From positions 161-64,160 of the forward strand of contig JBBRPE010000004.1 in assembly GCA_038228545.1 (NCBI GenBank): a stretch of DNA of 64,000 bases, written 5' to 3'. A program made the translations under genes and the position numbers. Positions 1,859 through 63,940 of this stretch are shown here, piece by piece (position 1 is the first letter of the stretch; each line of letters opens with the position of its first letter). The stretch comes from Minisyncoccia bacterium. GTDB taxonomy: Bacteria; Patescibacteriota; Minisyncoccia; Phycocordibacterales; Phycocordibacteraceae. The notes beneath the pieces were generated by a model, which did no database searches, was not told the DNA's origin, and saw nothing but the letters and a program-made list of their open reading frames with translations.

Positions 1859-2259
1859 GCTATGGTTTAGGCAGTAGCCATCAGGTCTGATATAAAGATT
1901 TGGTAGGCAAAGTTTGACTTTCCACCCAAAAGAGCAGTTCCAACATCGTCCAAGACCCCCAGCAAATGAAAAACCCCGAAAGGGGTCTTTTCATTTGTTG
2001 CGGGAAGCAGACTTGGGAAGTCTGCGGCTAGGACTCGAAGATGTTGCGAGCATAATCAGGGAGCGAAGCGACCCAGATTATCCGCAACGTATACTGCTCC
2101 GTAGGGAGAGAGTCCTAGTCTCGCAGCTTGTTCACAAATTTCACTGGCTGGATGGTATTAGAACCACTCATCATTGTAAAATTGTTATAGTTTAGTTATT
2201 CATACATAATTTGGTGTTTCTTAAGTAAGACGGTTCTATACAAAACGGACAACAATACT

Positions 2260-3027
2260 ATGAAATTAATAGGAAAAACAATCTTGATTACAGGAGGGGC
2301 ATCGGGCATTGGGCTCGAGGCGGCTAAACAGTTTTTGTCCCATGGTCTGAAAGTTATTATTACAGGCCGAGAACAAGAAAAGCTGAATGAAATAAAAAAG
2401 TTATACCCAGGTTTAATCACTATTAAAAGTGACCTAACGAGTGCTGAAGATGCGAAGTCACTTTTGAACCAAGTTAAAGAGTGTGGCGGGATTGATATTT
2501 TGTACAATAACGCAGGCGTCATGAGTCGACCTGCAAACTTAGGAATTACAAATGACAGTCATTTTGCAAATGCAACAAACGAAATAAACACAAACTATCT
2601 GGGAGTGATTCGCCTCAACAATCTTTTTATCGACATGCTGAATTCCAGAGAAGAAGCTGCGATCATTAATACCACTTCGATATTGAGCTACGTGCCGTTC
2701 ATCCTTGCGCCCACATATGCAGCGTCGAAAGTAGCCTTGCGCTTCTATACGGAATCGCTTAGGAGTCATTTGCTAATTATTGGTAGCAAGATCAAAATAT
2801 TTGAATTATTGCCGCCAGTAGTAGCTACTCGCATGGCCGACAATCTCGACACACAAACGATTACCCCGACAAGATTAGTTCAAGCACTGATTGGTGGACT
2901 TACAAAAGACCGGTACACAATACGAGTTGGTAATACAAAATTGGTGTATTTATTGAGTCGACTTTCACCAAAATTAGTATTCAACATTCTTAATTCCAAG
3001 AAGAATGCTCGTTTATTGCAAAAATAA
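2260..3027 (+). CDS. Short-chain dehydrogenase/reductase (SDR) family oxidoreductase
   Basis: N-terminal TGGASGIGLEAAKQF Rossmann motif and YAASK catalytic Tyr-x3-Lys motif. Lies in a low-GC (~40%) island. Confidence 0.8.
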   Translation: MKLIGKTILITGGASGIGLEAAKQFLSHGLKVIITGREQEKLNEIKKLYPGLITIKSDLTSAEDAKSLLNQVKECGGIDILYNNAGVMSRPANLGITNDSHFANATNEINTNYLGVIRLNNLFIDMLNSREEAAIINTTSILSYVPFILAPTYAASKVALRFYTESLRSHLLIIGSKIKIFELLPPVVATRMADNLDTQTITPTRLVQALIGGLTKDRYTIRVGNTKLVYLLSRLSPKLVFNILNSKKNARLLQK

Positions 3028-3511
3028 TCTTTGTCTTATGCTTGGCACTAGTAAACCGATGCTCTTGCAAAGCTCATGTGCATGCGGAACTTGTGGCGTC
3101 GAAGCGACAGTGATTCCAGTAGATCGATTTGTTTGTCACTGCTTGTTTTGCCAAACGTTTACAGGTATGCCGTTTTCGGATGTTACCATCTTTCGTGCTA
3201 AGGATGTTGCTATAAAAAATCCCGATAATCTTTCGTTTAAGAAATATCGGTGGCTTCCCCCACGACTTAATCGGGGACACTGCAGCACTTGCGGAAAACC
3301 GGTTGTTGAGTTGAGTGGCTCAGGATTATTTGCGCTTGTCTTTATCCCAAGTAATAGTTTTTCAAAACAAGAACTGCTACCAGTAATTCAACGGCACACT
3401 TTCTATCATCGACGCATACGAGATGCAGACGACCATTTGCCCAAACACAGCAGTTTTTTGAGTAGTCAACTAGTGCTTATAAAGATGTCTATTCATACCT
3501 TGTTACGTTAG
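3005..3511 (+). CDS. GFA/CENP-V family protein (glutathione-dependent formaldehyde-activating enzyme-like, Zn-binding)
   Basis: CACGTCG...CHCLFCQ...G..F and HCSTCGKPV cysteine motifs match the GFA domain pattern. The true start is probably an internal Met (3038 or 3059). Confidence 0.55.
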   Translation: MLVYCKNNLCLMLGTSKPMLLQSSCACGTCGVEATVIPVDRFVCHCLFCQTFTGMPFSDVTIFRAKDVAIKNPDNLSFKKYRWLPPRLNRGHCSTCGKPVVELSGSGLFALVFIPSNSFSKQELLPVIQRHTFYHRRIRDADDHLPKHSSFLSSQLVLIKMSIHTLLR

Positions 3512-4843: not shown

Positions 4844-4868
4844 ACCCCTTCGCTAAAGGGGTGTTTTA
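4844..4868 (+). terminator. Rho-independent terminator
   Basis: acccct tcgctaa aggggt followed by GTTTT. Confidence 0.5.
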
Positions 4869-4972
4869 CTTTCAGGGTTGTGGCGTCGTACCACAGGTAG
4901 TCGCTTCTTTCTCCGTGGTAGCGGTGTATGGCACCTCATGAATCCTACAGACAATTTTGTTATACTGCGGGC

Positions 4973-5458
4973 ATGCAAAAAATCACACCCTTTCTCTGGT
5001 TCGATAGTGAGGCTGAAGAGGCAGCGCAATTCTATGTAACTATCTTTCCAAACGCAAAACTCGGTGACGTCGTGCGATTCCCGGGTGGTGGGGAAGAAGT
5101 GACGGGTAAACCTACTGGGTCGGTAATGACAGCAGAATTCGAAATTGACGGACAAAAATTCGTAGGTCTAAATGGTGGCCCACACTTTAAATTCTCTGAA
5201 GCTGTTTCGTTCCTTATCGGATGTAAGGACCAGGAAGAAATAGATTACTACTGGGAGAAGCTCGCCGAAGGAGGGACTGAAAGTCAGTGTGGCTGGCTCA
5301 AAGATAAATTCGGACTCTCCTGGCAGGTAGCGCCGACAAACATGGCAGAGTTTATGAAAGGCTCTACACCGGAGGGCTCAAAAGCTGCAATGCAGGCAAT
5401 GCTGAAGATGAAAAAAATAGTCATCGCCGACCTCGAAGCTGCACGTGATTCGGTGTAA
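4973..5458 (+). CDS. VOC superfamily protein, PhnB-like (3-demethylubiquinone-9 3-methyltransferase domain)
   Basis: MQKITPFLWFDSEAEEAAQFY...FEIDGQKFVGLNGGPHFKFSEAVSFLIGCKDQEEIDYYWEKL is typical of PhnB/glyoxalase-like DUF (PF06983). The start is taken at an internal Met of track ORF 4928..5458. Confidence 0.7.
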   Translation: MQKITPFLWFDSEAEEAAQFYVTIFPNAKLGDVVRFPGGGEEVTGKPTGSVMTAEFEIDGQKFVGLNGGPHFKFSEAVSFLIGCKDQEEIDYYWEKLAEGGTESQCGWLKDKFGLSWQVAPTNMAEFMKGSTPEGSKAAMQAMLKMKKIVIADLEAARDSV

Positions 5459-11939: not shown

Positions 11940-11956
11940 ATGTTCGTATATAGAAA

Positions 11957-11985
11957 GGCCCCGTATCCACGGGGCCTTTCTATAT
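11957..11985 (+). terminator. Rho-independent terminator
   Basis: ggccccgt atcc acggggcc followed by TTTCTATATTT. Confidence 0.6.
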
Positions 11986-18706: not shown

Positions 18707-18809
18707 CAATCGAATTGTACGTAGTAGCCGTCGACAGATCACTTTTGTTTAAAGTGTTGCCCTACACAAAGGCCCCACGGATTTCTCCGCGGGGCTGCTT
18801 CTCTCTCCA

Positions 18810-19550
18810 TCAAATGACCTTTCCGTCGGCGAATCGTCCGGTTCGCCGTGCCGCCTCGCTCCAAAGTGCACGGCGTATTGCGAACTGAGTGTGTTTGTTA
18901 TCGGAGAAATGCGGAGTTTGAATACTCCTGAACATGGCACCGATTGCCAGGGTCACGTCGTGATCTTTGAAGTTGTTCTCCCTGATTATTATCTTGTTTT
19001 TCCAGTTCGCGGCGAGTCCGGCAAGTGTTTTTGCATCACGATTCCGGTGTACTCCTTTGCTTAACAGAGTTGGAATATGCGTAGCAATCTTTACTATAAC
19101 GAACTCGTTTTCCACGACCATTCTTGAGATGTAGTCTTCAGGAGTTTCATTCGTCGGTTGTGCCACTGGCCTCATCGACACGTTTCGTCGTGGTTCTTCT
19201 CGACGTATGACTGGCGGCCGATGCTCTGGGGCATGCACTGCCGAAGTAACGGCTGCCGGCCGTGCGGCCGATTTTGGCCGCACGGCGTCTACACCGCTCT
19301 TGGTGTGAAAGTCGCAAAGACCAGTTTTCGGGTTTACCCGCCCCTGCTCGTGCTCGGAAGCATCCTGCCTAAAGCAGGGAATGCATCGTCGCGACGGAGA
19401 GGGACAGCTGGTGCAGAGCGTCTTGTTTGTGACAGTCCCGGACGCGCTCACACAAGCATCGTGCGTGACTGCGCGCATATAGACGCCGCAGGCCTCATAG
19501 CCGCCGCCTGCCTGTGGTGAAAGCACGGCACTCCTTGTTGAAATAGGCAT
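18810..19550 (-). CDS. Hypothetical protein co-oriented downstream of dinB: GC-rich N-terminal Cys-rich (Zn-ribbon-like CxxC-x6-CxxC) region, linker, ~120-aa C-terminal domain
   Basis: Track ORF 18810..19712. The start is taken at ATG 19550, preceded by GGAG. N-terminus CTSCPSPSRRCIPC. The C-terminal half (18810..19175, MRPVAQPTNETPEDYISRMVVENEFVIVKIATHIPTLL...) has normal composition. The 19176-19623 block is ~65% GC and full of hairpins, so part of it may be non-coding. Confidence 0.35.
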   Translation of the reverse strand: MPISTRSAVLSPQAGGGYEACGVYMRAVTHDACVSASGTVTNKTLCTSCPSPSRRCIPCFRQDASEHEQGRVNPKTGLCDFHTKSGVDAVRPKSAARPAAVTSAVHAPEHRPPVIRREEPRRNVSMRPVAQPTNETPEDYISRMVVENEFVIVKIATHIPTLLSKGVHRNRDAKTLAGLAANWKNKIIIRENNFKDHDVTLAIGAMFRSIQTPHFSDNKHTQFAIRRALWSEAARRTGRFADGKVI

Positions 19551-19623
19551 GGAATAACTCCGTGATGTGCCCGGACAGGATCGTCCAGGGGGAGTATGCA
19601 CTTGTTTTTCGTACCTGCAAATC

Positions 19624-20952
19624 TCAGTCAACATCGCCCAAGTAGGGAAGAGGGAATATCTTCTTGCGATCTTCCGCTTGAAAAAGTGCGTCACGTCTCT
19701 TTTGTGAACCACTGCCGATACTGTGTCCTCGTGAGGCTATAACACCTGCTCGCGTAGCCTTCATAGAGGAACCAAGGTAGATGCTCCCTTGACCATATCT
19801 ATCCGTAAGTTCGTCTACTTTCTCAAAGAGACGCACCACTCCAGCAGCCTTCTTCGGATTGGTAAATAAATCCGGTTGGGATTCTTTTGATTCGTGCAGT
19901 CCAGTGAGCGTTACTCCTGTTGCTCGATAGCGAGTACCTTTTTGAAATACGTTTTGAAAATTCGGCTCGAGCGCCGCGAGAAGCTCGTGCGGCGCATTCG
20001 TAGCTTGTACGAGCTTAATCTCACATCCTTTGTAGCGGAATTCACTTGATTTAAGAAAGAACGATACGCCTTTAGCCACTAATCCGTGGTGTCGTGCCTT
20101 TACACACGCCGCTTCTATATTTTTTGAAAGTTGAGAATAGAGAAAATCAGCTTCGCTTGTGGAAGGAGAAAAGGTACGAGTCTTTTGGATTGAGTGATAA
20201 CTGTCTTTGGCTACCGTTGCAAGGTCATACACCGAAATACCGTTTAACTCCTGCCACGTTTCGATACCCGGCTTCGTTAGAAGAGTGCGTACCCATATTT
20301 CGTCTTTCTTCGCAAAATCGAGAGCAGTTTTAATTCCATGTTTGTTTAAAAGCTCCGCGGTATTGGGCCCAATGCCCCAAATATTTCCTATTTTCGTATT
20401 CTCAAGGTACCGGTCTTTCTCCATAAGACGTATGGGTGTAAAACCATCCGGTTTGGCATATTTCGAACCAACCTTCGCAAGTACTTTCGTGCACGCGAGT
20501 CCAACTGAGAAGGTAATATCAAGCTCACGCCGCAAATCATCTTTAATCTTTCGGGCGATTTCCTCATAGTTCATGTGGTGTACTCGTCGCATGCCGGTAA
20601 TGTCTCCAAAGCACTCATCGATACCGTACTCCTCTACCTCCGGAGTGTAACGCCGCATGATTTCATTCATGCGAATGGAATAGAGTGTGTAGAGCTCGTA
20701 GTCCGACGACACGATAATTGCTTCCGGACAAATCTTTTTTACATCAGCCAGACGTATGCCACGCGTAATTCCGCGAGCCTTTGCTTCGTAGGTGGCGGCA
20801 GAAACAATACCGCGCTCGGCACCGGTCACCACGGGCTTCCCACGTAGTGCTGGGTTGCGCGCCACTTCGCATGCGGCGAAGAAGGAATCGCCGTCTACAT
20901 GGATAATCGCACGCGGGTAGTGGTACGCCTTACCCCACCCAACCTCATTCAT
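19624..20952 (-). CDS. dinB: Y-family DNA polymerase IV (DinB)
   Basis: IIHVDGDSFFAACE (catalytic Asp pair) and IDECFGDITG (catalytic Glu) are retained, with little-finger and C-terminal regions. Immediately downstream of lexA on the same strand. Confidence 0.85.
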   Translation of the reverse strand: MNEVGWGKAYHYPRAIIHVDGDSFFAACEVARNPALRGKPVVTGAERGIVSAATYEAKARGITRGIRLADVKKICPEAIIVSSDYELYTLYSIRMNEIMRRYTPEVEEYGIDECFGDITGMRRVHHMNYEEIARKIKDDLRRELDITFSVGLACTKVLAKVGSKYAKPDGFTPIRLMEKDRYLENTKIGNIWGIGPNTAELLNKHGIKTALDFAKKDEIWVRTLLTKPGIETWQELNGISVYDLATVAKDSYHSIQKTRTFSPSTSEADFLYSQLSKNIEAACVKARHHGLVAKGVSFFLKSSEFRYKGCEIKLVQATNAPHELLAALEPNFQNVFQKGTRYRATGVTLTGLHESKESQPDLFTNPKKAAGVVRLFEKVDELTDRYGQGSIYLGSSMKATRAGVIASRGHSIGSGSQKRRDALFQAEDRKKIFPLPYLGDVD

Positions 20953-21147
20953 ATGAATCGCGAAACTGTCGCGTGGCTTCGTCGTACATCCGGTTCATGA
21001 TTCCTATGAGGAGGCTGTGCTTACCGAACTGCTATGTGCTGACTCTGCAGAAAGCGGTGCCCTGTCTTGCGGCGTGTCTCGAATATCGCACGGTCCTGCC
21101 ATGCTCCTACTGACACCATGGACCTCACTAGTTCTTTGGTACTCATA

Positions 21148-21711
21148 TTAGTATTTGCGTACGACGCCGGTAACGACGGCCTCGATAGTTAAATTGCCCT
21201 TCGGATAAATCGGCTTGTACGCACTATTCGCAGGCTCGAGGAAATAGTGCTCCCCTGACTTCCGGAGGTATTTCATCGTGTATTCGCCCTCAATCGAGGC
21301 AATGACTATCTGCCCGACCTTTGCCGTACGACGCTCGACGATGACGAGATCACCCGGGCATATGCCGGCGTCTATCATGCTTTCCCCCTTCACTTTGAGA
21401 ACATAACTCGATTCCTTGTTGGGTGTCAGATATTCGTCAAAGTCCATGACATCGAGCAGCTCTTCCTCAGCAGAGGAGGGGAAGCCAGCTTCCACAAGGC
21501 CGAGTAGTGGAATACCCGCGAGCGTGCGCCCTGGTGAAAGCCGACCTTCGCGATCTTTGGCAAGTACGCCTTCCTCGACTAATTTATTAATAAGCTTATA
21601 GACCGAGTTCTTCGAGGCAAGACCTGTTGCCTCCATGATTTCCTTATAGCCGGGCATGCGCTTGTGGCGCTCCCAGAATCCAATGACTTTTCGTTTATAA
21701 GTGTCGTACAC
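21148..21711 (-). CDS. lexA: LexA repressor (SOS response transcriptional repressor, S24 peptidase)
   Basis: N-terminal winged-helix region (MPGYKEIMEATGLASKNSVYKLINKLVEEGVL). C-terminal S24 domain with Ser in VKGESMIDAGI and Lys in VVTGVVRKY. Confidence 0.9.
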   Translation of the reverse strand: MYDTYKRKVIGFWERHKRMPGYKEIMEATGLASKNSVYKLINKLVEEGVLAKDREGRLSPGRTLAGIPLLGLVEAGFPSSAEEELLDVMDFDEYLTPNKESSYVLKVKGESMIDAGICPGDLVIVERRTAKVGQIVIASIEGEYTMKYLRKSGEHYFLEPANSAYKPIYPKGNLTIEAVVTGVVRKY

Positions 21712-21725
21712 GGTCTTTCCAGTAT

Positions 21726-21745
21726 AGGTGAACTGTGGTTCACCT
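21726..21745. promoter_or_regulatory. LexA operator (SOS box), Cheo-box type: AGGTGAAC-TGTG-GTTCACCT
   Basis: A GAAC-N4-GTTC core inside a 20-bp perfect palindrome, 15-34 bp upstream of the lexA ATG, in the divergent intergenic region shared with the DUF1059 gene. Confidence 0.7.
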
Positions 21746-22021: not shown

Positions 22022-22067
22022 TACAAACGACTACAGAATGACAAAAGCGCTCACTCGAGCGCTTTTG

Positions 22068-22661
22068 TCATTCGCGACCCTTCTTGTTTCTAAAAATAAA
22101 ATAGAAGAATAGATAGCTAAGGATGACGACAGCCACTAACATGCCAAGCGCGAACGAGGCAATACGCGCATCTGCCTCCCATGCCGCACCGATGTAGTAT
22201 CCGACAGAAAGATATACCGCACAGCAGAGTAGGTTTCCGAGCGTATCAAAAATGAGGTACGTTACTCGTGACGTTTGCGAGAGGCCAACTATTGCGTTCG
22301 CTGGTGTTCCGGCAAAGCCGACAAGGCGTGAAAGAAATATAGTCGCTTCCGGATAGCGGCCGACATATCCTTCAAGACGGCTTGCAAGTGAACTATTTTT
22401 TACGTAGCGTCGGTATCCTTGATGCTTTCCGAGGCGACGAGAAATAGAGAACACAATGTAATCGCCGATGACGCTGGCGAGTGTCGAGACGACGAGAAGA
22501 TACCAGAAATTAAAATATCCCTGGTGCACGAGTGCACCCATCGCGATGAGAAGTATGCCAACCGGTAGAAAAGTTGAAAGTTCACTCGCAACAACTATGG
22601 CAAATAGCGCGATGTACCCGTACTGCAGTATGTAGAGAAGTTCGACGTGGGAGAAGCCCAT
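22068..22661 (-). CDS. DedA/VTT (SNARE-associated) family membrane protein
   Basis: GYIALFAIVVASELSTFLPVGILLIAMGALV...SVIGDYIVFSISRRLG is typical of the DedA family. Confidence 0.75.
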   Translation of the reverse strand: MGFSHVELLYILQYGYIALFAIVVASELSTFLPVGILLIAMGALVHQGYFNFWYLLVVSTLASVIGDYIVFSISRRLGKHQGYRRYVKNSSLASRLEGYVGRYPEATIFLSRLVGFAGTPANAIVGLSQTSRVTYLIFDTLGNLLCCAVYLSVGYYIGAAWEADARIASFALGMLVAVVILSYLFFYFIFRNKKGRE

Positions 22662-28641: not shown

Positions 28642-28656
28642 CCGATCCACAAATAG

Positions 28657-28690
28657 AAAAGCGCTCGCACCGCGAGCGCTTTTCTATTTC
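28657..28690 (+). terminator. Rho-independent terminator
   Basis: aaaagcgctcgc accg cgagcgctttt followed by CTATTTCC. Confidence 0.7.
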
Positions 28691-35855: not shown

Positions 35856-36611
35856 ATGGAATTCATCGGAATCATCATACTTATTGTCGTCGTGCTTCTT
35901 TCACTATCACTTCGTGTAGTGAAAGAATATGACCGTGGCGTCATCTTCTTCCTCGGAAAGTGCACGGGCGTGCGCGGTCCGGGTCTCATCATCCTTGTTC
36001 CGATATTTGAGATGATGACCAAGGTTACACTCCGCACCATTACGATGAATATACCTTCGCAGAAAATTATAACGAAGGACAACGTCTCTATCGATATCGC
36101 TGCCGTTGCGTACTATCACATTGTTGACCCGCAGAAGTCGGTGGTTGCCATCGAGAATGTGCATGACGCAGTCAATCAGATAAGCCAGACAACCGTGCGT
36201 AACGTCGTGGGTCAGTTCATGCTCGACCAGCTGCTGTCACAGACGTCCGACATCAATGCACAGATACAGGGCGTTATCGATACGCACACCGAGCCGTGGG
36301 GCGCGCAGGTTACTGCTGTTGAAATCAAGGACATCACCCTCCCGGACAACATGCAGCGCGCCATGGCGAAAGAGGCAGAAGCGGAGCGCGAGCGTCGCGC
36401 AAAAATCGTCGCGGCAGAGGGTGAATTCCAGGCAGCCGTAAAGCTTGGAGAAGCAGCAGATATCATCTCGCAACACCCGGTCGCTCTCCAGCTCCGTACG
36501 TTGCAGACTATGGCGGAAATAAGCGTTGAAAAGAATTCAACCATTATTTTCCCGGCTCAATTCATGACCACCGTCCAGGAGGCCATGAAAATGATTAAGG
36601 GAGACGCGTAG
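35856..36611 (+). CDS. SPFH/band-7 (stomatin/prohibitin-like) domain protein
   Basis: N-terminal TM helix, band-7 core ([15 protein letters not shown]...[18 protein letters not shown]), and a C-terminal coiled-coil with [17 protein letters not shown]. Confidence 0.8.
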
Positions 36612-43259: not shown

Positions 43260-43307
43260 CAGTGCAAAGCACAACAGCCTCTCTGGAGGCTGTTGTGCTT
43301 TGCACTG
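43260..43307. repeat. Perfect 22-bp-stem hairpin (cagtgcaaagcacaacagcctc tctg gaggctgttgtgctttgcactg), no U-tract
   Basis: Seen directly. Lies 11 nt after the DUF4383 gene stop. Confidence 0.6.
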
Positions 43308-51722: not shown

Positions 51723-51776
51723 AAGCACACTATCCTCTCTTTGTGACGGTCGTCACAAAGAGAGGATAGTGTGCTT
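51723..51776. repeat. Perfect 25-bp-stem hairpin between convergent genes (aagcacactatcctctctttgtgac ggtc gtcacaaagagaggatagtgtgctt)
   Basis: Seen directly. No U-tract on either strand. Lies between the mutY-like stop (51718) and the MFS stop (51809). Confidence 0.6.
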
Positions 51777-52966: not shown

Positions 52967-53135
52967 TTGAAATCATTTTAGCACTACACAGGAGATTCGC
53001 CGTGGAAGACGCAGAATAATTTTCTACTGAAAATTTTCTTTCTACTCGGCTCGTCAGCCTGCGCAGGGTCTTCCGCAACGAATCACCAGCTCCGTCTTCG
53101 GAAGAATACATTCCATGCACGTCACTCGCTCCAAA

Positions 53136-53174
53136 CCACGCAACCCGCCGCACGAAGTGCGGCGGGTTGCGTGG
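53136..53174 (-). terminator. Intrinsic terminator of the RNase J gene (18-bp GC stem ccacgcaacccgccgcac gaa gtgcggcgggttgcgtgg)
   Basis: On the minus strand the stem is followed by UUUGG. Confidence 0.55.
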
Positions 53175-53239
53175 TGCGATACGGCGGATGAGACGCAGAG
53201 GCTCCGTAACGAAGCAGATGAAGTGCGTGTGCGACTCGA

Positions 53240-55192
53240 CTAAACGCCTATCAATACAGGAATAACCATAGGTGCCTTATTGGTGCGACTGAAGAGGTAG
53301 CCCGCCATAGTATCGGAGAGGGTGTTTTTTACGTAGTCGAGATCAACAGGGTTCATTCCTTGAGTTGAATCTTCCACAGTCTTCTTGATGAGAAGGCGCG
53401 CCTGATTGAGCAGGTCCTGGCTCTCACGCAGATAGATGAATCCGCGGGAAATGATGTCCGGAGACTTACGAAGCTTTCCGGTCTTCAGGTTTACCGTCGC
53501 GATGATAACGAACATGCCGTCCTTCGCAAGCATTTGACGATCGCGAATAACTACTTCCTGAAGGTCACCGATAGAGAAACCGTCCACAACGAGCGGTGCG
53601 GAAGGCACCTTCTCCTTGTGAATCATCATGGTCTCGCCGTCGATGATGTCGATAACGGTGCCGTTATCTGCAACGACAACGGAGTCCTTATCGCGTCCGG
53701 CTTGTATAGCAGCCTTTGCGTGGCTCTTGGTCATCGAATGGTAACCGTAAGCTGGCATGAAGAATTTCGCGCCGACTTTCTGGTTAATCCAAATGAGCTC
53801 ACCGGTATTTCCGTGACCGGTCGAGTGCACGTCGGAAGTGCGGTAGTGAATGAGTGTTACGTCATTGCGGTAGAGGTTGTCTTTCAACTTCTGCACGCTA
53901 ATTTCGTTTCCCGGAATGACAGACGACGAAAGCACTACCGTATCGCGATCGTTCAGGATGATGTTTTTGTGCTGTTTGGTAGCGATGCGCATGAGTGCGG
54001 CGAACTCTTCGCCCTGCGCGCCGGTCGCGAGTACAACAATCTTGTCGGGAGGATAGTCGCCGATTTCCTGTGCTGGAATAAGCGTTTCCTTTTTAAGATT
54101 CAAGAGGCCGGTCTTCTGCGCGATTTCGAGGTTTGTCTTAATCGAACGTCCCTCCGTAACAATCTTTTTTCCATACTTCTCTGCAATCTCGATGATATGA
54201 ATCATGCGATCAAACTGTGACGCGAACGTACCGATGATGAGACGGCCCGGCACGGTCTTGATGATTTCCTCAAGGGTCTCGTGCACCTTACGCTCAGGCA
54301 CGGAGAAACCATCACGCTCAGCGTTGGTTGAATCGGCAATGAAGAACAGGTTCTTCTCGGCACCAAGTGCGCCCCACTTTTTCTGTTCTTCGTCGGTTGG
54401 AATGCCGTTGTTGTGATCGAGCTTAAGGTCACCGGTAGCGATAACCCAGCCGTACGGCGTTTCGACTGCGATACCCATGGAGTCCGGAATCGAGTGAGTT
54501 ACCGGGAAGAACTTCACGCGAGTGGAGCCGATGGTAACGGTCGAGCCAGGCTCAACGGTAATCAAGTTCGGCTTTGGCATGTCTGGATATTCCTCCTGGC
54601 GCTTTGCAATCATGATGGCAGACAAATTCTGCGTGTAGATAGGTGGATTGCCGAAACGATTCATAAGGAACGGAATACCGCCGATATGGTCGAGGTGACC
54701 GTGGGTGATGAACACTGCACGAACACGGTCCATATTCTTTTCGAGGTACTTCGTATTTGGAAGAAGGTAATCAACGCCAGGATTACCGTCCTCGCTGGTG
54801 AACTGGAAGCCCACGTCGAAGATAAAGATGTCGCCGTTGGCTTCTACGGTGAACATGTTACGTCCGACTTCTTCCACGCCGCCGAGTGGCACGATGCGAA
54901 CGACGTTCGGTGCCGGTGCTTCAGGGAAATAGTCTGCGCTTTTCTTTACGGGTGCGCCGCCTTGGGATGGTCCCATGGGACGGCGGAGTGTGCGGCGAAT
55001 GGAGCGCGCTGCCTTGCCTGGGCGCGCTGCACCTCCTGCGCTCGGGCCTGTGTGAGGGCCACGCGCTGGTCCGCGGAACGGTGGGCGTGCGCCTTCTGAA
55101 GATGATCCTTCTCGGCGAGCGCCTTCGCGCGATGCGCTTCCTTCTGGTCGGTCTCCGCGCGGTGCGGGAGCCGGAGCTGGTGCTGAACTCAT
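53240..55192 (-). CDS. rnj: Ribonuclease J (metallo-beta-lactamase/beta-CASP family) with ~100-aa Arg/Gly/Pro/Ala-rich N-terminal extension
   Basis: HGHLDHIGGIPFL (HxHxDH), beta-CASP motifs and C-terminal domain. N-terminus MSSAPAPAPAPRGDRPEGSASREGARREG...GPARGPHTGPSAGGAARPGKAARS is low-complexity. Confidence 0.88.
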   Translation of the reverse strand: MSSAPAPAPAPRGDRPEGSASREGARREGSSSEGARPPFRGPARGPHTGPSAGGAARPGKAARSIRRTLRRPMGPSQGGAPVKKSADYFPEAPAPNVVRIVPLGGVEEVGRNMFTVEANGDIFIFDVGFQFTSEDGNPGVDYLLPNTKYLEKNMDRVRAVFITHGHLDHIGGIPFLMNRFGNPPIYTQNLSAIMIAKRQEEYPDMPKPNLITVEPGSTVTIGSTRVKFFPVTHSIPDSMGIAVETPYGWVIATGDLKLDHNNGIPTDEEQKKWGALGAEKNLFFIADSTNAERDGFSVPERKVHETLEEIIKTVPGRLIIGTFASQFDRMIHIIEIAEKYGKKIVTEGRSIKTNLEIAQKTGLLNLKKETLIPAQEIGDYPPDKIVVLATGAQGEEFAALMRIATKQHKNIILNDRDTVVLSSSVIPGNEISVQKLKDNLYRNDVTLIHYRTSDVHSTGHGNTGELIWINQKVGAKFFMPAYGYHSMTKSHAKAAIQAGRDKDSVVVADNGTVIDIIDGETMMIHKEKVPSAPLVVDGFSIGDLQEVVIRDRQMLAKDGMFVIIATVNLKTGKLRKSPDIISRGFIYLRESQDLLNQARLLIKKTVEDSTQGMNPVDLDYVKNTLSDTMAGYLFSRTNKAPMVIPVLIGV

Positions 55193-61263: not shown

Positions 61264-62157
61264 ATGAATCTCTACCAGGAACGTTCAAGTAATATCTGGC
61301 GCACTGTCTTGCTTATGGTGGGCTTCTTGGCTGTGGTTATTTCTCTCGGGTATGCAGTCTCGTGGTACTACAATTCGCCAAGTATTTTGTATGTCGCCGT
61401 AGCGTTTGCGGTGTTAATGAATTTCTACAGCTACTGGTTTAGCGATAGTCAGGTGCTCTCTATGACCAACGCACGCCCAGCACTTCGTGAGGAGTTCTTC
61501 GACTTCTACACAGTCGCGGAAAACATGGCCATAACGGCAGGTCTCCCTATGCCGAAGCTCTATGTCATAGAAGACCCGGCACCAAATGCGTTTGCCACCG
61601 GACGCGACGAGAAACACGCGGTTGTGTGCGCAACGACCGGACTCCTTTCTATGATGACGCGCGTGGAGCTTGAGGGTGTTATTGCGCACGAGATGTCTCA
61701 CATTAAGAATCGCGACATTCTTCTTATGATGGTGGCAGTTGTGCTTGCAGGATTTACGGCTATTATCGCTGACATATTTCTACGCATGTCATTTTGGGGT
61801 GGAGGACGCAGTAATCGCGACAACGGCGGGGGAGGACTTCTCATGATTCTCGCCATCGTCGGCATCATCCTCGCACCTATTGCTGCTCAGCTTATCGAAC
61901 TTGCTATATCACGTCGTCGTGAATACTTAGCGGACACTTCCGGCGCACTTCTAACGCGCTACCCCGAAGGTCTCGCCTCAGCTCTCGCGAAGCTCGGAAA
62001 TTATCAGGCACCCATGCAGCGCGTCTCGCACGCCACCGCACATCTCTTTATAAGCGACCCCTTCGGACCAGCTAAGACCGATTTCATAGATAAACTTTTT
62101 TCTACGCATCCACCGATTGCAGACCGTATTAAGGCCCTTATGGGTACGGCGAAATAA
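61264..62157 (+). CDS. htpX: Zinc metalloprotease HtpX (M48 family)
   Basis: HEMSHIKNRD (HExxH), four TM helices, and a C-terminal third metal ligand region. Confidence 0.88.
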   Translation: MNLYQERSSNIWRTVLLMVGFLAVVISLGYAVSWYYNSPSILYVAVAFAVLMNFYSYWFSDSQVLSMTNARPALREEFFDFYTVAENMAITAGLPMPKLYVIEDPAPNAFATGRDEKHAVVCATTGLLSMMTRVELEGVIAHEMSHIKNRDILLMMVAVVLAGFTAIIADIFLRMSFWGGGRSNRDNGGGGLLMILAIVGIILAPIAAQLIELAISRRREYLADTSGALLTRYPEGLASALAKLGNYQAPMQRVSHATAHLFISDPFGPAKTDFIDKLFSTHPPIADRIKALMGTAK

Positions 62158-63785
62158 CGTTCTGTGCTATAACAAACGAGCACGGAGGCGTCGCATAGCG
62201 GTCTAGTGCGCACGCTTGGAAAGCGTGTGTGGGGCAACTCACCGAGAGTTCGAATCTCTCCGCCTCCGCAGATAGAAACTTCGAGTTCGGACAGAGCCGC
62301 GCCGCAAAGCGGCGTGGCAGAATGGGCGGGCAGAAAATGCCGCCGCGAAGCGGCGAATTGGCTCGGCGTGGGGAATACGAAATGCGGGGATTTGTCACGA
62401 ACCGAAGGGTTCGTTCCGATTTTTTGCACGGATGATTTGATTTGGTACAAATCATCCGATTGGGACAAAAAATCGGCTTGTTTCATATCTAAAATCCACT
62501 CCCGCAGGGGTTCGACCCAAGCATTTCTCCCGCGTTCAAAATCTTTCTTCTTCTCCCGCAAAGCGACGAGGGAGCGCATGAGTGCGTCCTTGCGCTTCAA
62601 GTACATCTCTTTCGGCACATCACCGTCTAAATACGCCGACACCAGTTTTTCCATGCGCTCCTCGCTTGCTTTGATACTGTCGGAAAGATTTTGAACCTCG
62701 CTTTGCGACGTTCCAACCTCCTCGCGCTCCCATTCCTTCACTTTATTAAGCATCCAATCGGTGTAGCGATTGCAAAGCGAGATTGTTTGAAGCCGTGCCT
62801 TTATTTTGTCGGCAAGGTCGGCCTCGCGGACATACGGTTGCGAGCAGCGGCCGCGCTTCTTGGAACACCGATAGTAGCGATACTTCGTACCCCAGCGATT
62901 AGTAGCCCACTGCGCGGAAATCATGCCACCGCACTCGCCACAGCGGAATAGCCCGACAAGCGGAAAATCATGCTTCACCTTGCGCGTGCGCGGCCGCTCC
63001 TTGCCCGCCACGACCTTCTGCACGGCTTCAAACAATGCGGGAGTTAGAATCGGCTCAAAGTTTCCATCAAACCATTCCTGACCGTGCTTCACGAATCCGA
63101 TATACACGCGATGCGTCAAAAGCCGTTTGATGGAAACTTTGGCAAGTGGCGTTCCGTTTGAAGTCACCACGTTCAAGTCCGCCAAAAATTGCGACAACGA
63201 AACGAGAGTATGCGACCCTTTGGCGTATTCTTCGTACGCGAGGCGCACGATACGCGCGTTCGTCGGATGCGGTTCAATATTGCGAATGCGCGGGTTGTTT
63301 TGATAGCCAAAGGGTGCGCGATTGAGCCACTCGCCCCGACGCAATTTTTGGCGGACGCCGCGCTTGATATTTTCGGACAGATTGTCGCTGTAATATTTAG
63401 ATTGCCCGAACGCCACTTGCAACATAAATAGTCCCTGCGGGGTCGGTTCAAACCAAAATGTCGGGAAGCGCAAAGACACCACCTTACGCGTGTCTACGGC
63501 GTATATGATGCGCCCGCCGTCAATGCTGTTGCGAGCCAATCTATCGGGATGCCACGCCAATATGCCCACGCCGTCCATTGATTCAATGCGGGCCATCATT
63601 TCGCCGTACACCTCGCGCCCCGGTGTCTTTGCGCTTTTCGACTCTTGAAATTCCTCAAGAATTTCAAGATTTTCTTTACGCGCGATCTCCCGCAACTCAA
63701 ACAGCTGCGCCTCGATGGACATGACTTGCCGGTCATCGTCCTCAGTGCTCTTACGCGCGTATAGAAAATATTTTGGCTTGTTCAT
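62004..63785 (-). CDS. Large serine recombinase (resolvase-like catalytic domain + recombinase domain + Zn-ribbon + coiled-coil); 3' end uncertain
   Basis: N-terminus MNKPKYFLYARKSTEDDDRQVMSIEAQ (catalytic Ser in YARKST), ...GILAWHPDRLARN, recombinase domain, CGECGGMISAQW...YYRCSKKRGRC zinc ribbon, coiled-coil. Start at ATG 63785 (the track ORF runs to 63884 through the right repeat). No in-frame stop occurs until 62004. The frame therefore runs through the left repeat, antisense tRNA-Ser and antisense htpX, so the last ~130 codons are probably not genuine. Confidence 0.75.
   Translation of the reverse strand: MNKPKYFLYARKSTEDDDRQVMSIEAQLFELREIARKENLEILEEFQESKSAKTPGREVYGEMMARIESMDGVGILAWHPDRLARNSIDGGRIIYAVDTRKVVSLRFPTFWFEPTPQGLFMLQVAFGQSKYYSDNLSENIKRGVRQKLRRGEWLNRAPFGYQNNPRIRNIEPHPTNARIVRLAYEEYAKGSHTLVSLSQFLADLNVVTSNGTPLAKVSIKRLLTHRVYIGFVKHGQEWFDGNFEPILTPALFEAVQKVVAGKERPRTRKVKHDFPLVGLFRCGECGGMISAQWATNRWGTKYRYYRCSKKRGRCSQPYVREADLADKIKARLQTISLCNRYTDWMLNKVKEWEREEVGTSQSEVQNLSDSIKASEERMEKLVSAYLDGDVPKEMYLKRKDALMRSLVALREKKKDFERGRNAWVEPLREWILDMKQADFLSQSDDLYQIKSSVQKIGTNPSVRDKSPHFVFPTPSQFAASRRHFLPAHSATPLCGAALSELEVSICGGGEIRTLGELPHTRFPSVRTRPLCDASVLVCYSTERYFAVPIRALIRSAIGGCVEKSLSMKSVLAGPKGSLIKRCAVACETRCMGA
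62184..62268 (+). tRNA. tRNA-Ser (anticodon GGA)
   Basis: Acceptor stem GGAGGCG/CGCCTCC, anticodon stem CACGC/GCGTG with loop TTGGAAA, long variable arm (TGGGGCAACTCACC), T-arm GAGAG-TTCGAAT-CTCTC, discriminator G. CCA is not encoded. Folded by eye. Confidence 0.8.
62266..62395. repeat. Left copy of a 130-bp GC-rich inverted repeat, starting in the last 3 nt of tRNA-Ser
   Basis: Reverse-complement identical (129/130) to 63811..63940. Contains internal hairpins gccgc aaa gcggc and cgccgc gaa gcggcg. Confidence 0.85.
62398..62429 (+). terminator. Putative intrinsic terminator just inside the left repeat boundary (cgaacc gaag ggttcg + TTCCGATTTTTT)
   Basis: Seen in sequence; a T6 run follows the stem. 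Confidence 0.45.
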
Positions 63786-63810
63786 ATTAGTTTTTGGATT
63801 GAAACAAGAG

Positions 63811-63940
63811 ACAAATCCCCGCATTTCGGATTCCCCACGCCGAGCCAATTCGCCGCTTCGCGGCGGCATTTTCTGCCCGCCCATTCTGCCACGCCGCTTT
63901 GCGGCGCGGCTCTGTCCGAACTCGAAGTTTCTATCTGCGG
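63811..63940. repeat. Right copy of the 130-bp inverted repeat, immediately upstream of the serine recombinase start
   Basis: Reverse complement of 62266..62395 with one mismatch (A/C). Its inner edge is 26 bp from the recombinase ATG. Confidence 0.85.

Follow-up and report, generated by a model that had tools for sequence, protein, structure and literature searches.

The block of raised guanine plus cytosine (GC) content at positions 19176-19623 of a 64,000-nucleotide stretch of the genome of a Minisyncoccia bacterium (contig JBBRPE010000004.1; the whole stretch is called the window below) is protein-coding DNA. Positions 19176-19550 correspond to codons 1-125 of a minus-strand gene, here designated X, and positions 19551-19623 hold its ribosome-binding site, its 5′ untranslated region and a promoter-like element. 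With a probability of about 85%, the block encodes a conserved Cys-rich domain, which probably binds metal, at the N-terminus of an uncharacterised and putatively DNA-binding protein whose gene follows lexA and dinB in a Parcubacteria-like genome of the candidate phyla radiation. A preliminary description had placed the block between dinB and a downstream open reading frame (ORF), but its larger part is that downstream ORF itself, and 19551-19623 alone is intergenic. The open minus-strand frame noticed at that stage (from 18810 to 19712) and the possible start codon (ATG 19550, with GGAG at 19561-19558, 7 nt upstream) are both present. The anatomy of the gene is as follows, HTH standing for helix-turn-helix.

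18810-19550 (stop codon included), minus strand: gene X, 246 amino acids, with a Cys7His N-terminal domain, a Pro/Arg/Ala-rich linker and a helical, HTH-like C-terminal domain.
19275-19502, minus strand: Cys7His domain, residues 17-92, defined by alignments, codon-periodic conservation and AlphaFold modelling.
19149-19274, minus strand: Pro/Arg/Ala-rich linker, residues 93-134, with predicted disorder and a gapped, variable alignment.
18813-19148, minus strand: helical domain at the C-terminus (residues 135-246), probably a divergent HTH of the LuxR/GerE type with a 16-residue insertion.

The coding status of the block is carried by homology and by the pattern of substitutions. An exhaustive HMMER search with the 246-residue protein against 1.84 billion cluster representatives retrieves 34 proteins with an expectation value (E) below 1e-3, X included (i.e. 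33 homologues), the best of which is 43% identical (E 2e-19). All the alignments fall within residues 1-218 of X and always cover the Cys-rich domain encoded by the block; the named homologues all belong to Parcubacteria/Patescibacteria and are annotated either as ‘hypothetical protein’ or as ‘ParB N-terminal domain-containing protein’. Comparison at the codon level was made on an ungapped core of 46 codons in the window gene and in the recovered DNA of ten homologues. Invariant Cys residues are spelled both TGC and TGT, conserved Arg residues both CGN and AGA, and conserved Gly residues by all four codons. Between X and its closest relative, the copy at locus L002 (Parcubacteria group bacterium RYN_398), nucleotide identity is 0.78, 0.74 and 0.41 at codon positions 1, 2 and 3, respectively, with proportions of nonsynonymous (pN) and synonymous (pS) differences of 0.25 and 0.71. 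Codon-periodic conservation across homologues, which the preliminary description had itself proposed as the test of coding, is thus found. A plus-strand ORF antisense to X (19158-19520, 120 amino acids) is also open; it was rejected as a gene, having no Pfam match, and conservation follows the minus-strand frame.

The start of X is better placed at ATG 19550 than at GTG 19526, where the database gene call begins (P0001, 238 amino acids), because of the spacing of the GGAG motif and because L002 and a second relative, L006, likewise have a Met-Pro start preceded by CACGGAG. A comparable short gene call was noticed elsewhere: at L037 (about 4860-5000), the call for homologue P0006 (199 amino acids) is too short, and an upstream in-frame ATG preceded by GGAGG restores its first two conserved Cys residues.

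The Cys7His domain displays eight candidate ligands (seven Cys and one His) within about 62 residues. C46, C49, C56, C59, C79 and H82, which form the knuckles C46xxC49, C56xxC59 and C79xxH82, are invariant in the alignments; the same holds for C21 and C33 in those family members whose N-terminal domain is full-length, and R54, G77 and G86 are near-invariant. In the AlphaFold model of full-length X (from the 34-sequence alignment), residues 11-100 have a predicted local distance difference test score (pLDDT) of 85-97, the linker (residues ~100-135) is disordered, and residues 137-239 of the C-terminal domain are helical with pLDDT 52-84. Within the linker, residues 100-130 have pLDDT values of 50-56 and the sequence varies among homologues. 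Modelled alone, the N-terminal domain reaches a pLDDT of 90.8 and a predicted template modelling score (pTM) of 0.74, and comprises four helices and two short strands. The knuckles are those of zinc ribbons and other small Cys-rich zinc modules, and the eight ligands, the two further single Cys residues being counted, would suffice for two metal sites; the mainly helical fold sets the domain apart, and Foldseek finds no match to its model at E ≤ 10 in PDB or BFVD. The Cys-rich N-terminus formerly described as a ‘Zn-ribbon’ is indeed encoded by the minus-strand ORF, but a zinc-ribbon fold is unsupported, given the helical model and the lack of a PDB match.

No catalogued family covers the domain. 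Pfam and NCBIfam give no match for the 300-residue ORF that contains X; none of Pfam, NCBIfam and PDB contains a relative of the Cys7His domain, and no Pfam zinc-finger family matches X or its homologues. Sequence-profile search of PDB with the N-terminal domain yields no significant match, and its best hit, RBM22 (E 1.7), was taken as chance and discarded as a relative. PHROGs and PADLOC models do not match X or the domain either. In addition, a degenerate DNA pattern for C-x2-C-x4-R-x-C-x2-C-x17-G-x-C-x2-H-x3-G was scanned over genomes, metagenomes and viral contigs. In 185,579 species genomes, three of the 11 hits are true loci, all in Parcubacteria metagenome-assembled genomes; metagenome contigs contribute six true loci (14 hits) and viral contigs none (two hits), the other hits being out-of-frame GC-rich false positives. 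Together with the named homologues and the related loci described below, these matches point to a Parcubacteria-group genome as the probable origin of the window.

Downstream of the Cys7His domain, the partner domains are swapped among homologues, which carry a LuxR/GerE-type HTH, an XRE HTH or ParB. By Pfam, the C-termini of the 34 family members include ParB_N plus HTH_ParB in five, GerE in two, and HTH_3 and Sigma70_r4_2 in one each. One patescibacterial homologue (P0015, 633 amino acids) has two tandem Cys-rich domains, at residues ~30-110 and 220-289, ahead of ParB_N/HTH_ParB. The profile built from the non-ParB C-terminal domains of the family matches GerE (1fse) with E 1.5e-8, and structures of LiaR, NarL, VpsT and VraR with E from 1e-8 to 1e-6; with the full-length model of X, Foldseek returns LuxR-type matches that are weak and insignificant (E about 1-7). 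The family resembles LuxR/GerE regulators of the NarL/FixJ type, such as GerE and the C-terminal domain of NarL (1je8), in this profile, in the Pfam GerE or Sigma70_r4_2 matches of some homologues, and, for X, in small size and in an architecture that places an ‘input’ domain at the N-terminus and an HTH-like domain at the C-terminus. It differs from them in that the input is not a receiver, an autoinducer-binding domain or any other catalogued domain, in an extra conserved helix after the HTH, and, for the window protein, in a putative HTH that is divergent and has the 16-residue insertion.

The signals for expression of X lie on either side of the coding sequence, as listed here.

19593-19620, minus strand: promoter-like element in the 73-nt spacer between dinB and X, with TTGCAG (19620-19615), 16 nt and CATACT (19598-19593).
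19558-19561, minus strand: Shine-Dalgarno sequence GGAG, 7 nt upstream of ATG 19550, within a CACGGAG conserved in L002 and L006.
18772-18795, minus strand: terminator-like hairpin after the stop codon of X, with a 10-bp stem (8 GC pairs) followed by CTTTGTGT.

The promoter-like element is below the threshold of a generic sigma-70 scan. Nevertheless, X probably has its own promoter, to judge from its sequence, because six loci that differ in the genes upstream show the same layout, TTGnnn-N16-CATA(C/A)T, in front of their X homologue, at 38-51 nt from its ATG. Scanning of the minus strand between lexA and X, the dinB-X gap included, uncovers no terminator-like site, and no SOS box is found upstream of X or of stand-alone homologues.

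Several observations weigh against the proposed identity of the block or against parts of it. In a codon-usage model for which 28 long window ORFs served as the training set, the log-odds of the block are negative in all six frames, with −0.22 in the frame of X versus 0.0 to 0.5 for other genes, and GC by codon position is flat (0.62/0.61/0.58) versus 0.58/0.44/0.54 in the training genes; by composition alone, the block is unlike a typical gene of the host genome. Word-index searches return nothing besides X itself with the single sequence (among 5.8 billion proteins), no match with the profile of the N-terminal domain and two proteins with the full alignment; these searches are uninformative for the family owing to the index, and its homologues are revealed by the exhaustive HMMER scan only. 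The family is small and fast-evolving, X being 33% identical to the L002 copy where LexA is 85% identical. The C-terminal domain of X fits the family profile weakly (hhalign probability 58%, E 1e-4, with the 16-residue insertion) and has no Pfam match, GerE included. A perfect hairpin within the coding sequence, described below, and the excess in minimum free energy (MFE) of folding that persists once it is removed (z about −1.9) are unexplained by the protein sequence. Lastly, the promoter-like element of X is devoid of an SOS box and homologues elsewhere stand in unrelated contexts, so that SOS control of X is possible but not required.

The hairpin has the following position and composition.

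19259-19286: perfect hairpin GCCGTGCGGCC/GGCCGCACGGC (11-bp stem, 6-nt loop) within the coding part of X, over the codons for A-V-R-P-K-S-A-A-R-P.

Its stem arms encode A-V-R-P and A-A-R-P, where the domain passes into the linker. Two small palindromes also noted previously, cctgc-ctaaa-gcagg (19364-19378) and cgtcgcgacg (19387-19396), exist as well; they fall on the most conserved codons (for P-S-R-R-C and P-C-F-R-Q), and nothing suggests a function of their own. All stems named in the preliminary description are accordingly real, but ‘hairpin-dense’ overstates a block that has mostly one hairpin. This hairpin is beyond chance for the block (P = 0.002 with Markov-1 nulls). Folding of the block is also more stable than expected, with MFE z-scores of −3.2 (minus strand) and −2.3 (plus strand) relative to dinucleotide shuffles, and of −2.8 when the synonymous codons of the protein are resampled. 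Part of this excess is due to the hairpin, the MFE being −156.5 in its presence and −148.3 after three synonymous changes that remove it, for a null of −132.4 ± 8.5.

Given a coding block, the hairpin could be a selected element of the mRNA, for instance a ribosome pause site aiding metal loading and folding, or a site for mRNA processing or stability. Its position, which coincides exactly with the domain end, and its stability (−25.3 kcal/mol) speak for such a role, as does the fact that none of 3000 synonymous resamplings of X reaches even a 10-bp stem. However, the hairpin is conserved in none of the 10 homologous genes examined, the region was chosen for its hairpin (a selection bias), and perfect hairpins of at least 11 bp are in excess inside the listed ORFs of the window (four versus 0.17 expected per 64 kb). 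The block is therefore not singular in this respect; the excess hints at a genome-wide surplus of palindromes in coding DNA and points to a mutational tendency, and selection on the hairpin is improbable. The hairpin is better regarded as lineage-specific, possibly mutational in origin, and not as evidence for an RNA gene. The other three perfect 11-bp hairpins inside listed ORFs are at 35896-35927, 62429-62458 and 63643-63669; the ORF at 62004-63884, which overlaps a tRNA-Ser (62184-62269), may be spurious. Very long perfect hairpins, with stems of 17-25 bp far beyond chance, are found between genes at 11948-11985, 22036-22073, 28651-28689, 43260-43307, 51723-51776 and 53135-53175, and are probably bidirectional intrinsic terminators typical of the host genome.

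The base composition of the block bears on another explanation, namely that the block is what remains of inserted or foreign DNA, for example of a mobile element or a phage. GC content is 59.2%, versus a window mean of 50.9% (standard deviation 3.5%, 448-nt windows), which corresponds to the 99th percentile. The rise reported earlier is consequently real, but the value of ~65% given for it was too high, the richest 200-nt sub-window reaching 62%; a richer segment (62.7%) occurs elsewhere in the window, at 54741. A local rise of ~9 points would fit foreign DNA, as would the orphan look of X in the word-index search and the absence from the window of a nei-like gene that relatives carry between dinB and X. 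Yet the rise is predicted from the protein: the amino acid sequence combined with the synonymous codon usage of the window gives an expected GC of 58.8% for the coding part of the block (observed 60.5%), and in the linker 63% is expected from the amino acid sequence and 61% observed. Arg (10.4% versus 4.4%), Pro (9.6% versus 4.4%) and Cys (5.6% versus 0.6%) are raised in the block, together with Ser and His, and Leu, Ile, Lys, Phe and Asn are depleted. The amino acid composition of the N-terminal half of X therefore accounts both for the raised GC and for the Cys/Arg/Pro/Ser-rich look of every reading frame, and in most homologues too the Cys-rich domain is GC-richer than its own locus. Furthermore, the block lacks notable direct or inverted repeats at its flanks, viral contigs hold no true match, and neither PHROGs nor PADLOC includes a family for the domain. 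Vertical inheritance is indicated by synteny with Parcubacteria relatives and by the promoter and ribosome-binding site conserved with them, so that an inserted remnant is very improbable.

The last alternative, a structured non-coding RNA (an SOS-regulated small RNA or a cis-regulatory element) with an ORF arising as an accident of high GC, draws on the two shuffle-based z-scores, the P value of the hairpin, the negative codon-usage scores and the open antisense ORF, but is effectively refuted, and retains next to no probability, by protein homologues down to E 2e-19, by conservation of the protein sequence, in which variation has a period of three nucleotides and synonymous codons replace one another at invariant Cys, Arg and Gly residues, by the zero consensus pairs that RNAalifold finds in 11 homologous sequences, by the lack of the hairpin in the 10 homologues, and by the covariance scan suggested at the outset, in which neither strand of 18000-21000 matches Rfam at E ≤ 10 (at gathering thresholds, tRNA-Ser is the sole match in the whole window). 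The structured RNA, LexA-regulated RNA and inserted-DNA remnant of the preliminary description are hence all without support, and the block is retained as the 5′ part of gene X.

The genes upstream of X form a putative SOS unit, the elements of which are listed here.

19624-20952, minus strand: dinB, Y-family DNA polymerase IV (Pfam IMS 9e-44, IMS_C, IMS_HHH), directly upstream of X.
21148-21711, minus strand: lexA (TIGR00498 116.6 bits, cut-off 110.95; Peptidase_S24 3e-25).
21727-21744: SOS box GGTGAAC-CACA-GTTCACC, between the −35 TTGCAG (21749-21744) and the −10 TATACT (21726-21721) of the lexA promoter.

GAAC-N4-GTTC is the LexA operator of the Gram-positive type, and the SOS box holds the sole perfect copy in the 64-kb window. 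The dinB product matches NCBIfam DNA polymerase IV models with E down to 2e-65, all under the curated cut-offs. The GTG start of lexA (21711) is ~10 nt after the −10 element, which makes the lexA mRNA nearly leaderless, and the same arrangement is seen at L002 (3160-3200). The gene neighbourhood of X is conserved with two relatives, as lexA-dinB-(nei)-X and dinB-(nei)-X. In L002, the one relative whose lexA region could be compared, lexA is 85% identical, dinB 59% and X 33%, with a nei-like H2TH gene and the same SOS-box promoter; L006 has dinB (64% identical), an H2TH gene and X. The nei-like gene, for a glycosylase of the Fpg/Nei family, lies between dinB and X at L002 5149-5919 and L006 682-1482. 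The spacer between lexA and dinB is 195 nt in the window (20953-21147) versus 2 nt in L002, and no SOS box or terminator was detected in it. The unit thus resembles LexA-controlled lexA-dinB units in the GGTGAAC-N4-GTTCACC box placed between −35 and −10 in both the window and L002 and in dinB following lexA. It is distinguished by X as an extra, uncharacterised last gene with a promoter-like element of its own that lacks an SOS box, and, in the relatives, by the nei-like H2TH gene too.

Other homologues of X occupy other contexts, beside genes for an S41 peptidase and L9, beside GlnA, alone, or convergent with recO, none with an SOS box. The notion that X is always SOS-linked is ruled out by the differing contexts in L004, L005, L007, L037, L038 and L040. 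In two Parcubacteria genomes (L010 4848-6647 and L013 75-1345), the homologue is flanked by a gene for a DUF11 protein and is convergent with recO, which would be a second DNA-repair neighbourhood of the family but may be coincidental. A second perfect GAAC-N4-GTTC was noticed in L002 (1980-1991), upstream of a gene for a 310-residue protein without Pfam domain (2163-3095) located just before lexA; from its operator-like sequence, this may be a further SOS gene in Parcubacteria.

Taken at the level of function, X is most likely a metal-dependent transcription factor, as far as sequence features can tell. The eight invariant ligands of its N-terminal domain would bind metal, two Zn2+ ions being the likeliest arrangement (three knuckles and two single Cys residues) and an Fe-S cluster the alternative. 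The metal-bound domain would stabilise or gate the C-terminal LuxR-like HTH, and X would act as a small metal-dependent DNA-binding regulator, the metal having a structural or a sensing part. Transcription would start at its own promoter and, in the lineage of the window, X may also be raised after DNA damage by read-through from the LexA-repressed lexA promoter, which is possible because X directly follows lexA-dinB with no terminator between. In short, we infer metal binding and DNA binding by X, its co-transcription with lexA-dinB and its SOS induction.

WhiB-like [4Fe-4S] proteins and zinc-containing anti-sigma (ZAS) domains are small proteins that combine a conserved Cys cluster with a function in transcription. 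By analogy with this combination of a Cys cluster and a transcription role, X could in principle be a redox or metal sensor. It has no sequence relationship to these proteins, with no such Pfam match in the 34 family members, and differs from them in the spacing of its Cys residues, in its set of seven Cys and one His instead of four Cys or HxxxCxxC, and in the DNA-binding partner found in its family (LuxR-type HTH, XRE HTH or ParB).

Regulators that combine a metal-binding domain with an HTH are common, and X is no surprise of kind. It defines, rather, an uncatalogued family of Cys-rich domains, so far confined to Parcubacteria/Patescibacteria, which has a confident predicted fold without solved relatives and is embedded in a lexA-dinB unit in one sub-clade. 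It also illustrates that DNA can be coding even when it is rich in GC, bears a hairpin, has poor codon statistics and holds an ORF that looks like an ‘orphan’, as the exhaustive profile search alone revealed. Bacteria of the candidate phyla radiation have very few recognisable regulators and, given this scarcity, a metal-dependent one that is peculiar to a lineage and connected with the DNA-damage response would be of biochemical interest. A further proposal, doubtful at present, is that the Cys7His module represents an undescribed metal- or redox-sensing fold (binuclear Zn or Fe-S) restricted to Patescibacteria and repeatedly joined to LuxR HTH, XRE HTH and ParB domains, serving here as a second regulator of the lexA-dinB SOS unit that responds to damage or oxidants. 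If this were true, a Cys7His sensor in the lexA-dinB unit would constitute a new layer of DNA-damage signalling in the reduced-genome bacteria of the candidate phyla radiation.

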